Source: a virus (Duplodnaviria; Heunggongvirae; Uroviricota; Caudoviricetes). Taken from it: a stretch of DNA of 21,752 bases. Positions 1 through 3,000 of this stretch are shown piece by piece. The stretch lies in IMG/VR virus record IMGVR_UViG_2529292985_000022. One strand, 5' to 3'. Made by a program: the position numbers. Position 1 is the first letter of the stretch. The number at the start of each line of letters is the position of its first letter.

Positions 1-3000
1 CATTTTTTTCCGAAGCGCTGTTGACGAACCAGTTTCAGCATTTCTTCCAGAAGCTGGATGCGCCGGCTTTTCTCCAGTAATTCCCGCTCTTTTTCGGCAT
101 TCTCCGACATGACTTCTTGTACCATGGCAAGTGCCATAGCACGCAGTTTTTCGATGTCATTCGTGGTGTTGAGAGCGGAGATATCCATACAGGGGAGTAT
201 ACCACTCCAGATACGGATATTCATTATTTTTCACTGAGTTAGCAGTGTATTTTGCGTGTTTTCAGGGCGCAGTTCAGGTTCATTCTGCCAGACCCATTTC
301 GTCAGGTCATGTCCCTTAACCTGCTGCCAGTCAACACCGGCAATCAGCCAGTTAAACTCGTCGGGAGTGAGGTGCCAGGCAGCGTCATTTGCACGTGGCC
401 AGCGGAAGCTGCCTTTGTGCAGACGGCGGGTACACAACCACACCCCGTGTTTATCCCACCGGAGAACTTTGATACGCGAACGGGCTTTGTTAACAAAGAC
501 GAAGGCGGCTCCCTCATGCCATGTCGACCGGAGTTCATCCTGTATATACTGCGTCAGTGAGTCGATGCCCCGGCGCATGTCAACAGGTTTAATTGCGATG
601 AAGACATTATCAGGACTGAGCATATTTGAGTGCCCTGAAGACATCGGTAAGTTGTGACGGCTGACAGCACATCCGTACTCCACCGGGAAGGAAGAGCGTG
701 ACTGGCTCATTCGTGACGGGCTGTGGTACATCAGCATGCAGTGGTGGCGCAATATGAACGGGAAGAACGGTCGGTTCATTTGCCCGGCGTTCAGCTTTTG
801 CGACATCCTGCGGCCATTCGCGAAGTGATGTGAAGGGAATATCGTTGAGTTCACAGTATTGCTGACGTGTAAGACCACTGGCGCGCCAGGCAGCAACGTG
901 CTGCCTTTTCTGTTCAATGGTCCATCGGGGTTTTGACATCGATTATCTCCGGTAAGTTGGTGAATGGATGTCGGTAATACTAACTGACCGAAGATCCCTG
1001 TGAAGATGACTTCCCCGTAACGACACTCAAAATTTCGGCAAATTCACAGTCATTCCAGTCGGAGATCCAGCGGGCGTCCCGTATGGGCAGTGAATATTAC
1101 CGGACCCTGCAGAATGGCGGACGTCATGCCGCTGCTGCCGCACGGGAACAGCGCCGCGCCCTTGCAGAACTGAACAGTCAGTTGACGGAAATTCGCGGTT
1201 CTGCTGTCGGAATGGCTGGCGCATTTGCCGGTGCCTTTGCCACCGGACACCTGATTTCGCTGGCCGATGAGTGGGGTTCCGTGAAGGCCCGTCTGAAACA
1301 GGCATCTCAGTCATCGGATGAATTCTCGTCATCACAGAAAGTGCTGATGGATATCAGTCAGCGAACAGGTACCGCGTTTTCGGATAATGCGGCCCTGTTT
1401 GCCCGTTCGGCTGCCTCGATGCGTGAATATGGTTACAGTGCTGATGATGTGCTGAAGGTGACGGAGGCCATTTCGACAGGACTGAAACTGTCAGGGGCTG
1501 GAGTTGCGGAATCCGGTTCGGTGATCACCCAGTTCAGCCAGGCACTGGCACAGGGTGTACTGCGTGGCGAAGAATTTAATGCTGTTAACGAAAATGGCGA
1601 CCGGGTGATCCGCGCGCTTGCTGCGGGGATGGGTGTGGCCCGTAAAGATCTGAAGGCAATGGCGGATGACGGAAAACTGACAGCGGATAAAGTGGTCCCT
1701 GTGTTAATCAGCCAGCTGGGGATATTACGTGATGAATATGCGGCCATGCCGGAAACGGTTTCCGGTAGTATCACGAAGGTGGAAAACGCCTTTATGGCCT
1801 GGGTGGGCGAAGTGAATGAGGCCTGCGGGGTGACAAAAACGCTCTCCGGCGTGCTGAACGGTGTTGCCGGACAGATTGATAATGTGGCAACAGCTGTGGG
1901 GGCGCTGGTTGCCGTCGGGGTTGCCCGGTACTTTGGCAATATGGCCTCCGGAGCGATGTCTGCCACGGCAGGACTTGTGACGGCTGCACGTAATGAAGTT
2001 GCACTGGCGGAAGCACAGTTCAGGGGAACGCAGATTGCCACGGCGCGGGCAAGGGCAGCCGTGTACCGTGCTCAGCAGGCCGTGGCGGCAGCCCGCGGGA
2101 CGGAGATGCAGATTGCTGCAGAGGCCCGTCTGGCGGCCACACAGGAACGCCTGAACAGAAATATTGCTGCCAGAAGCGCCGCCCAGAATGCGCTGAACAG
2201 TACAACGGCGGTGGGCTCACGTCTGATGAGCGGTGCGCTGGGGCTGGTTGGTGGCGTACCCGGACTGGTGATGCTGGGGGCTGCAGCATGGTACACGCTG
2301 TACCAGAATCAGGAGCAGGCCTGGGAGTCTGCGCGCCAGTATGCACTGACGATAGATGAAATCGCGCATAAAACGCCGTCAATGTCTTTGCCTGAAGCCT
2401 CAGATAATGAAGGACGAACACGGGCGGCGCTGACAGAGCAGAACCGGCTGATTGATGAACAGGCTAGTCGGGTGAAATCCCTGCAGGAAAAAATCGCAGG
2501 ATATCAGTATGTTCTGGCGAACCCGGGCTGGACGACCGGTGACGGATTCATGATAAACCATCTGACCTCGGTGAAGACCGTAACGGAAGGGCTTGCTCAG
2601 GCAACAGAGCAGCTTGCCGTTGAGCAGTCCCGTCTGGCACTGATGCAGGAAAAAGCGCAGTCCATTCAGGATGTGCTTGCCGGGCTGGAAGACCGTCGTG
2701 TGGCGTTAATTCGTCAGCAGGCGGCAGAGCAGAATAAGGTGTACCAGTCCATGCTGGTTATGAACGGTCAGCATACGGAATTCAACCGTCTGCTGGGGCT
2801 GGGTAATGAACTGCTTCAGCAGCGGCAGGGACTGGTGAATGTGCCGTTACGGCTGCCACAGGCCACTCTGGATGATAAACAGCAGAGTGCCCTGACAAAA
2901 ACAGAGCGTGAGCTGGCCCTGTCCAGACTGAAAGGGGAAGAAAAAGAGCGTGTCCGACTGGGGTATGCGGCGGATGACCTCGGTTTTGTGGGTGATCCGT

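Follow-up and report, generated by a model that had tools for sequence, protein, structure and literature searches.

Probable Simple Transposition of an ISEc49-Like IS66-Family Element Into the Tape Measure Gene of a Defective Shigella Prophage

The Locus and Its Features

The stretch of DNA analyzed here (21,752 nt, hereafter the window) is the entire draft contig AERM01000156.1 of Shigella dysenteriae assembly GCA_000193895.2. Both ends of this contig fall in IS copies, and its left edge lies inside tnpC, the transposase gene of an IS66-family element. The other end of that element abuts the tail tape measure gene H of a lambdoid prophage, and H is followed in the window by M, L, K, I, and J. 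The features discussed below are:

1..224, minus strand: 5′ end of tnpC (IS66-family transposase), with its start at 188 (RefSeq 521-aa model) or 224 (533-aa model)
231..623, minus strand: tnpB, IS66 accessory protein, 130 aa (PF05717, 120 bits; NF033819, 115 bits)
610..939, minus strand: tnpA, IS66 accessory protein, 109 aa (NF047593, 50.8 bits, cut-off 28; RefSeq annotation)
940..1026, minus strand: non-coding left terminal region of the IS, its end at 1026 seen in independent contexts
984..1026, plus strand: IS-encoded extension of the open H frame, 14 codons of IS inverted-repeat DNA
1000..1026, no strand: left terminal inverted repeat of the IS, 27 bp
1027..1034, no strand: one copy (the right-hand one) of the 8-bp target-site duplication, TCAAAATT; its left-hand counterpart lies past the window at the other IS end
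1027..4244, plus strand: 3′ part of H, 3218 nt (H nt 26-3243), frame intact (PF20155, PF06120, PF09718; alignment)
8196..8198, plus strand: TGA nonsense codon in the tail-tip gene J, in which a single G-to-A change turns TGG (Trp450) into TGA

Identity and Ends of the IS66-Family Element

The element has the run of genes tnpA-tnpB-tnpC, terminal inverted repeats, and an 8-bp target duplication, and on these grounds belongs to the IS66 family. Only 62 codons of tnpC lie within the window before the contig edge cuts the gene. Its complete product in CP026840.1 (L050), the nearest complete genome, is 533 aa long and carries PF13007, PF13005, PF03050, and PF13817; tnpC is also full-length in a sister assembly (L029) whose DNA is 100% identical to the window. 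A promoter scan of the minus strand picked out a promoter-like site directed at tnpA, its -35 at 1004 and its -10 ending at 977.

Positions 1..1026 of the window are 100% identical to copies that RefSeq labels "IS66-like element ISEc49 family" (CFT073, ATCC 25922, and others), and the name ISEc49 is used here as this RefSeq/PGAP label on identical DNA. All of the ISEc49-family matches end at 1026. The flanks part right after ...CCCCGTAACGACAC in CFT073 (beside agn43), in 64A:C, in plasmid NZ_CP065614.1 (trbE/traF), and in the window, and since flanks at independent sites diverge directly past this sequence, 1026 is the true IS terminus. A match to 64A:C that extended 15 nt beyond the IS end was set aside, since the element sits at another site there and BLAST had extended the match by chance. 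The IS ends were thus defined from several independent flanks and not from ISfinder. Two F-type plasmid copies supplied complete ends, giving a full element of 2766 bp; in NZ_CP065614.1 (L012) it lies in the trbE-traF interval with GAATGAAG, a perfect 8-bp duplication, on either side.

With the ends set on L012, L015, and L050, the left inverted repeat reads inward as GTGTCGTTACGGGGAAGTCATCTTCAC and the right one is GTAAGCTTCCGGGGAACTCATATTGAC; the two match at 19 of 27 positions, counted by eye. The left repeat opens GTGTCG and the right repeat GTAAGC. Elements of the IS66 family end in inverted repeats of roughly 20-30 bp that typically start with GTAA (ISfinder descriptions), and a GTAAGC start is typical of them. 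The standard target duplication of the family is 8 bp according to ISfinder, a length also reportedly given by Han and co-workers in 2001. An inverted-repeat search on the CFT073 copy found no terminal repeat, as a second IS66-family element cuts into the right end of that copy, and aligning the left end locally with the sequence past tnpC gave a spurious internal match only. Literature searches yielded two incidental mentions for "ISEc49" and nothing citable for the stated features of the IS66 family.

The 5′-Truncated Tape Measure Gene

Homology to phage DNA starts exactly at 1027 in more than 1200 E. coli genomes and 95 phage records. Intact H was taken from E. coli O157:H16 Res13-Lact-PEA12-26 (L001, CDS 5976..9218, 1080 aa), and from EDL933 as well. 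Alignment to the intact 1080-aa gene places window position 1027 at nt 26 of H, and the Res13-Lact-PEA12-26 gene is 99.7% identical to the window over 1027-2400. That the truncated frame belongs to a tape measure gene follows from its three Pfam domains, from M, L, K, I, and J lying 3′ of it in the window, and from G and T preceding the IS in relatives. It does not amount to a complete H with its own start and ribosome-binding site, since its first 25 nt and the Shine-Dalgarno sequence are missing: neither the native Shine-Dalgarno and start (GGAGAAAGGTGAATG) nor the native 5′ end, GGAGAAAGGTGA-ATGGCGACGTTACGTGAACTGATTA, occurs in the window.

The H frame is open from 984, just past a TAA at 981-983, and a codon list shows no ATG, GTG, or TTG in frame between 984 and 1083. 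The first ATG, at 1083, corresponds to native Met28 and leaves 1053 aa; the nearest GGAG, at 1061-1064, lies 18 nt 5′ of it. The promoter scan returned no plus-strand promoter-like site in 850..1250. Automated annotation nonetheless places here a 1086-aa "tape measure protein" (P0098; 984..4244) that begins at the CTG at 984. The original prediction, made from the window, had described the same layout, namely an IS66 tnpA starting at 939 on the opposite strand and an H frame open from 984 with no start codon before 1083 and no convincing Shine-Dalgarno there, and each of these details holds. The alignment of the H N-terminus to intact homologs that it proposed bears out the 5′ truncation, and the arrangement that would have spoken against it, an IS lying wholly upstream of a complete H with a ribosome-binding site, is not what is found.

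The Far Junction in Related Genomes

Because the window contig stops within the IS, the left flank in the source strain is inferred from relatives. Simple transposition predicts a far junction in which ...ATGGCGACGTTACGTGAACTGATTATCAAAATT is joined to GTAAGCTTCC..., and with it an 86-aa ORF that reads MATLRELIIKI followed by VSFRGTHIDAFF... (VSFRGTH...). The predicted junction peptide is present in the protein collection, in P0001 (S. dysenteriae), P0006, and P0010 (S. boydii). The full 86-aa form, P0111, is found on 715 contigs under the label "MULTISPECIES ... [Shigella]" and clusters with these three.

Eleven large contigs, eight of them CP-numbered records of more than 4.4 Mb, read across the far junction. 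All 11 have the order G, T, the first 33 nt of H (H′), the IS, the rest of H ('H), M, L, K, I, J, with TCAAAATT flanking the element on both sides; they were picked via the far-junction peptides and so carry the H′ junction, which makes the arrangement common, not universal. The IS measures 2766 bp in nine of them, and 2733 bp (L015) and 2751 bp (L043) in the other two, which have internal deletions. In all, TCAAAATT stands on both IS sides in L015, L016, L018, L019, and L041-L050, and intact H has a single copy of it. CP026840.1 differs from window positions 1..8488 by one mismatch in 8488 nt, at base 8198; next to its far IS end stands ...GGAGAAAGGTGAATGGCGACGTTACGTGAACTGATTATCAAAATT, which is H nt 1-33 and ends in TCAAAATT, and upstream of the junction lie T, G, V, tail-completion and connector genes, portal, capsid, and terminase. 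Draft S. dysenteriae assemblies contain small contigs that run from V′ through G and T to H′ and end at the IS. The sister assembly L029, 100% identical to the window over 10,745 nt, includes the whole 2766-bp IS and breaks exactly at its far end. In short-read assemblies contigs break inside the IS or at its end, as expected with a multi-copy element.

Matching TCAAAATT duplications and the upstream genes present in relatives thus indicate that the IS66 element split H with no upstream deletion. The original prediction had the insertion removing the upstream head and tail-assembly genes, which CP026840.1 contradicts, since it keeps them beyond the IS. Its further suggestion that the native 5′ end of H had been removed stands insofar as the start, the Shine-Dalgarno, and the first eight codons are detached from the ORF, and fails insofar as H nt 1-33 survive intact past the far IS end in relatives. 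The terminal inverted repeats and 8-bp duplication that it proposed to look for do exist, as 27-bp repeats and as TCAAAATT on both sides in relatives. The displaced genes that it proposed to seek beyond the window start are there in part: G and T lie past the far IS end in 11 relatives and head genes in CP026840.1, and in S. boydii the head genes are gone.

Simple Transposition and Loss of the Left Flank

From sequence comparison, we consider it probable, at roughly 0.88, that a simple IS66 transposition split H and that the remnant of H is likely an unexpressed pseudogene in a defective prophage. A complete, 2766-bp ISEc49-like IS66-family element would have transposed into H of a lambdoid prophage with an HK97-like head and a lambda-like tail, with tnpA, tnpB, and tnpC antisense to H. 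Integration would have taken place after H nt 33, duplicating the target TCAAAATT, which is H nt 26-33 (codons 9-11). Past the far IS end would then lie the native ribosome-binding site, start, and first 11 codons of H, these codons running on into IS DNA to give an 86-aa by-product ORF. T, G, and the remaining late operon would come before it, and the upstream genes would simply be displaced by 2766 bp. In the source strain the far IS end would adjoin ...GAACTGATTATCAAAATT, with GAACTGATTATCAAAATT and GTAAGCTTCC in contact there and linked through the IS to 1027 onward, and the far-junction sequence in GCA_000193895.2 would be GAACTGATTATCAAAATTGTAAGCTTCCGGGG. Its relatives suggest that the source strain has the same left flank.

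It is less likely, at a level that we would call unlikely outright, that the source strain lost its original left flank by recombination with another ISEc49-like copy or by an IS-mediated adjacent deletion. This is in essence how the original prediction read the locus, and G, T, the H 5′ end, and the head genes would then be elsewhere or deleted. Such hybrids exist. The draft S. dysenteriae assembly L027 (GCA_013835765.1) has an island ending in ...GTTTACTG, then the full IS, then TCAAAATT and 'H, the island being unrelated DNA near yfjJ-like genes, and the same island-IS junction is found in CP045784.1 on a truncated second IS copy. This is the pattern that recombination between two IS copies leaves, and IS-IS recombination at the H copy therefore does occur. 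S. dysenteriae genomes hold at least one further copy of the IS (L026), breaks in short-read contigs fall within the IS or at its edge, and the left flank of the window lies outside the contig. However, L027 has 24 mismatches to the window in 5158 nt and is thus about 0.5% divergent, compared with the near-identical CP026840.1, which at one mismatch in 8488 nt is a simple insertion with all upstream genes. The matching duplications in 11 of 11 large contigs (chosen by their H′ junction) and the small draft contigs ending in H′ and the IS also speak against flank loss. The P0116 lookup, which turned up the recombinant L027 along with another copy of the IS, is noted as a caveat, not an answer.

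Expression and Selection of the Truncated Gene

The 1053-codon ORF lacks its own ribosome-binding site and promoter, and the antisense IS stands between it and late transcription. On these grounds the H remnant is most likely an unexpressed pseudogene, and a recently made one. Over 3216 nt, each IS-bearing copy of 'H differs from the window by 0-5 nt, and the changes are mostly non-synonymous; between the window and intact phage H genes, pN/pS is 0.10-0.14. These values may fit relaxed, recent evolution of 'H after the insertion, on substitution counts that are very small. With copies at most 5 nt apart, an intact frame is expected by chance.

A contrary view would hold that the IS-fused ORF encodes a functional, N-terminally remodeled tape measure protein, of 1086 aa from the CTG at 984 or 1053 aa from Met28, its expression driven by a signal that reads out of the IS end. 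We regard this as very improbable. The 3.2-kb frame is intact in the source strain and in most relatives, and PGAP annotates a protein, not a pseudogene. Against this, the plus strand has no promoter-like site, Shine-Dalgarno, or canonical start codon, the near-identity of the copies and the character of their few changes are as described above, and H is broken further in L015, L044, and L047; moreover, with V split by IS1 and J truncated in the source strain, no tail could be built. A related and similarly remote idea is that the ORF (1053 aa, or 1086 aa with 14 IS-encoded N-terminal residues) has been kept and is expressed for some host function through an outward-reading signal in the IS66 left end; if true, this would account for the survival of an open 3.2-kb frame in most Shigella lineages.

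The possibility that the junction is an assembly chimera of an IS contig and a phage contig, raised by the fact that both contig ends fall in IS copies, typical misjoin sites of old draft assemblies, is negligible and was rejected, as the identical junction recurs in finished or long-read complete genomes (CP026840.1 and CP000036.1 among them) as well as in dozens of independent short-read assemblies, and the far IS end carries the matching target duplication.

Decay of the Prophage

An intact prophage would have uninterrupted structural genes. Here H is interrupted by the IS66 element and J by the TGG-to-TGA change, the two J halves matching lambda_TipJ positions 1-449 and 451-1163. The J nonsense base, the sole difference from CP026840.1 over window positions 1..8488, is also found in two other assemblies. 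In CP026840.1, an IS1 sits in the major tail gene V, and frameshifts split the terminase, portal, and gp17 genes, making several independent hits on the prophage. Head genes have been lost in relatives from S. boydii (L015, CP000036.1, and others), where the break lies at the IS1 within V, and chromosomal genes (yedI-like, or pocR/cob) directly adjoin this IS1. The lesions in H, V, terminase, portal, gp17, and J support a defective, cryptic prophage. The original prediction had come to the same view from the truncated H and the J nonsense codon; the grounds are now broader.

Distribution of the Junction

The junction between H and the IS66 element recurs base for base in many independent assemblies of S. 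dysenteriae, S. boydii, and S. flexneri, and the insertion is old enough to be common to the three. Window positions 1-1400, which span the junction, were found in one piece in none of 5426 complete E. coli genomes, and the junction is absent from the phage and plasmid records searched. Within the collections searched, it is specific to Shigella-labeled genomes. An exact-pattern scan of the genome contig collection for the junction found nothing; in GTDB, Shigella is folded into the E. coli species representative, to which we attribute this null result. Looking up the exact 1053-aa product returned short contigs only, ending in the IS, and P0112 likewise.

The presence of the junction in three Shigella species and in 0 of 5426 complete E. 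coli genomes suggests that the shared arrangement (H nt 33, the IS, TCAAAATT) could serve as a lineage marker. The significance of the locus is mainly one of annotation, with no new biological question attached. One IS insertion gave rise, as by-products, to both the 1086-aa "MULTISPECIES phage tail tape measure protein [Shigella]" and the 86-aa "hypothetical protein" recorded across hundreds of Shigella assemblies; their terminal residues are encoded by the IS, and the two would be better annotated as pseudogene pieces. A contig end within an IS next to a truncated gene should, more generally, not be taken as a deletion.

Comparison With Known Systems

From 1027 onward the window is 94-99.7% identical at the nucleotide level to H of lambdoid Stx/O157-type prophages (Res13-Lact-PEA12-26, EDL933, phage BP-4795), with the same set of Pfam domains and the same downstream order, M-L-K-I-J. 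In contrast to intact lambdoid H, the first 25 nt, the Shine-Dalgarno, and T are not contiguous with it, and the first in-frame ATG is Met28. The element, for its part, shares with ISEc49 of CFT073, ATCC 25922, and F-type plasmids the order tnpA-tnpB-tnpC, the termini, and the 8-bp target duplication; the insertion site alone differs.

The event is of an already known kind, a textbook IS66-family transposition into a prophage gene, in genomes that have long been published (CP000036.1). IS expansion, pseudogenization, and IS-mediated rearrangement are known in Shigella (Hawkey et al., 2020, PMC7373316; Seferbekova et al., 2021, PMC8072062). Hawkey et al. (2020) tracked IS1, IS2, IS4, IS600, IS911, and others; the terms "IS66", "ISEc49", and "prophage" are absent from the text of that paper, and the H insertion site is not discussed there. 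In the IS-driven decay described for Shigella (Hawkey et al., 2020; Seferbekova et al., 2021), a single IS inactivates a gene and is inherited across lineages, as here. The H locus resembles that pattern also in having further IS1, IS110-family, and IS3-family copies around it and in the IS-IS recombination seen in some strains.

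Protein models at the insertion junctions and decay of the H remnant

Both sides of the IS66-family insertion that splits H, the tape-measure gene of the lambdoid prophage, have entered the databases as proteins.

Window 984-4244, + strand: H remnant as a 1086-aa protein model (automated annotation; entries P0098 and P0100-P0102)
CP026840.1 (closest complete genome; L050) 10001-10261, far side of the IS, outside the window: 86-aa "hypothetical protein" P0111 (715 contigs)

The 1086-aa model starts at a CTG at position 984, within the IS inverted repeat, and its first 14 residues (MTEDPCEDDFPVTT) are encoded by the IS; at least 250 contigs now carry this model, labelled "MULTISPECIES" for Shigella. 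P0111 is an ORF that the insertion created as a by-product: H codons 1-11 are fused to 75 codons that the IS contributes from its right end. In P0010, which represents some S. boydii copies of this ORF, there is an internal 33-bp deletion located in a repeated GAAGTACTGA-like motif.

Relative to window 2539-2940, H of S. boydii AMKD01000039.1 (L015 14278-14481) is approximately 200 nt shorter, which splits the remnant into ORFs of 489 and 500 aa. The H remnants of two further contigs, L044 and L047, are likewise broken or uncalled, and the pseudogene is therefore decaying independently across lineages.

The tail-tip gene J carries a nonsense codon.

Window 8196-8198, + strand: TGG (Trp450) to TGA in J, one G-to-A change

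This is the sole mismatch between the window and CP026840.1 in 8488 nt. Sequencing error was ruled out as its source because contigs of two further assemblies (GCA_001017215.1 and GCA_049894525.1) carry the same TGA; the change is a genuine strain-level mutation.

Other insertion sequences in the window

Insertion sequences lie at both window ends, and the assembly breaks there because each end falls within one. The 3′ contig end (20828-21752) consists of two such pieces.

Within window 20828-21752: IS1 piece, 420 bp, 98.8% identical to the L015 IS1
Within window 20828-21752, after the IS1 piece: 505 bp, 99.4% identical to an IS3-family element of CP045784.1

Directly ahead of aspS, at 14705-16753, an IS110-family gene is flanked by two isochorismatase-family (PF00857) fragments; this looks like an IS insertion splitting a yecD-like gene.

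Window 15079-16275, - strand: IS110-family transposase gene (NF033542, 237 bits)
Window 14705-15040 and 16466-16720: PF00857 fragments

Evidence of recombination and rearrangement at IS copies

L027 1864-4629 (one S. dysenteriae lineage): IS adjoining the H remnant, with an unrelated left flank
CP045784.1 (L026) 9926-12361: second IS66-family copy, with a flank matching that of L027
L015 8156-9259, L042-L048 about 8100-9260, L050 7766-9259: IS1 in the major tail gene V

The L027 left flank (...GTTTACTG) lies by yfjJ-like and zinc-ribbon genes near an aerobactin cluster. In CP045784.1 the same flank adjoins the second copy, which is truncated at the equivalent of window 696. The shared flank is evidence that the two copies have recombined.

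The position of IS1 in V is identical in all relatives compared. Beyond it, S. dysenteriae genomes continue with the N-terminal part of V and then the head genes; S. boydii genomes continue with chromosomal genes (yedI-like or pocR/cob), which implies an IS1-mediated deletion or rearrangement at V in S. boydii.
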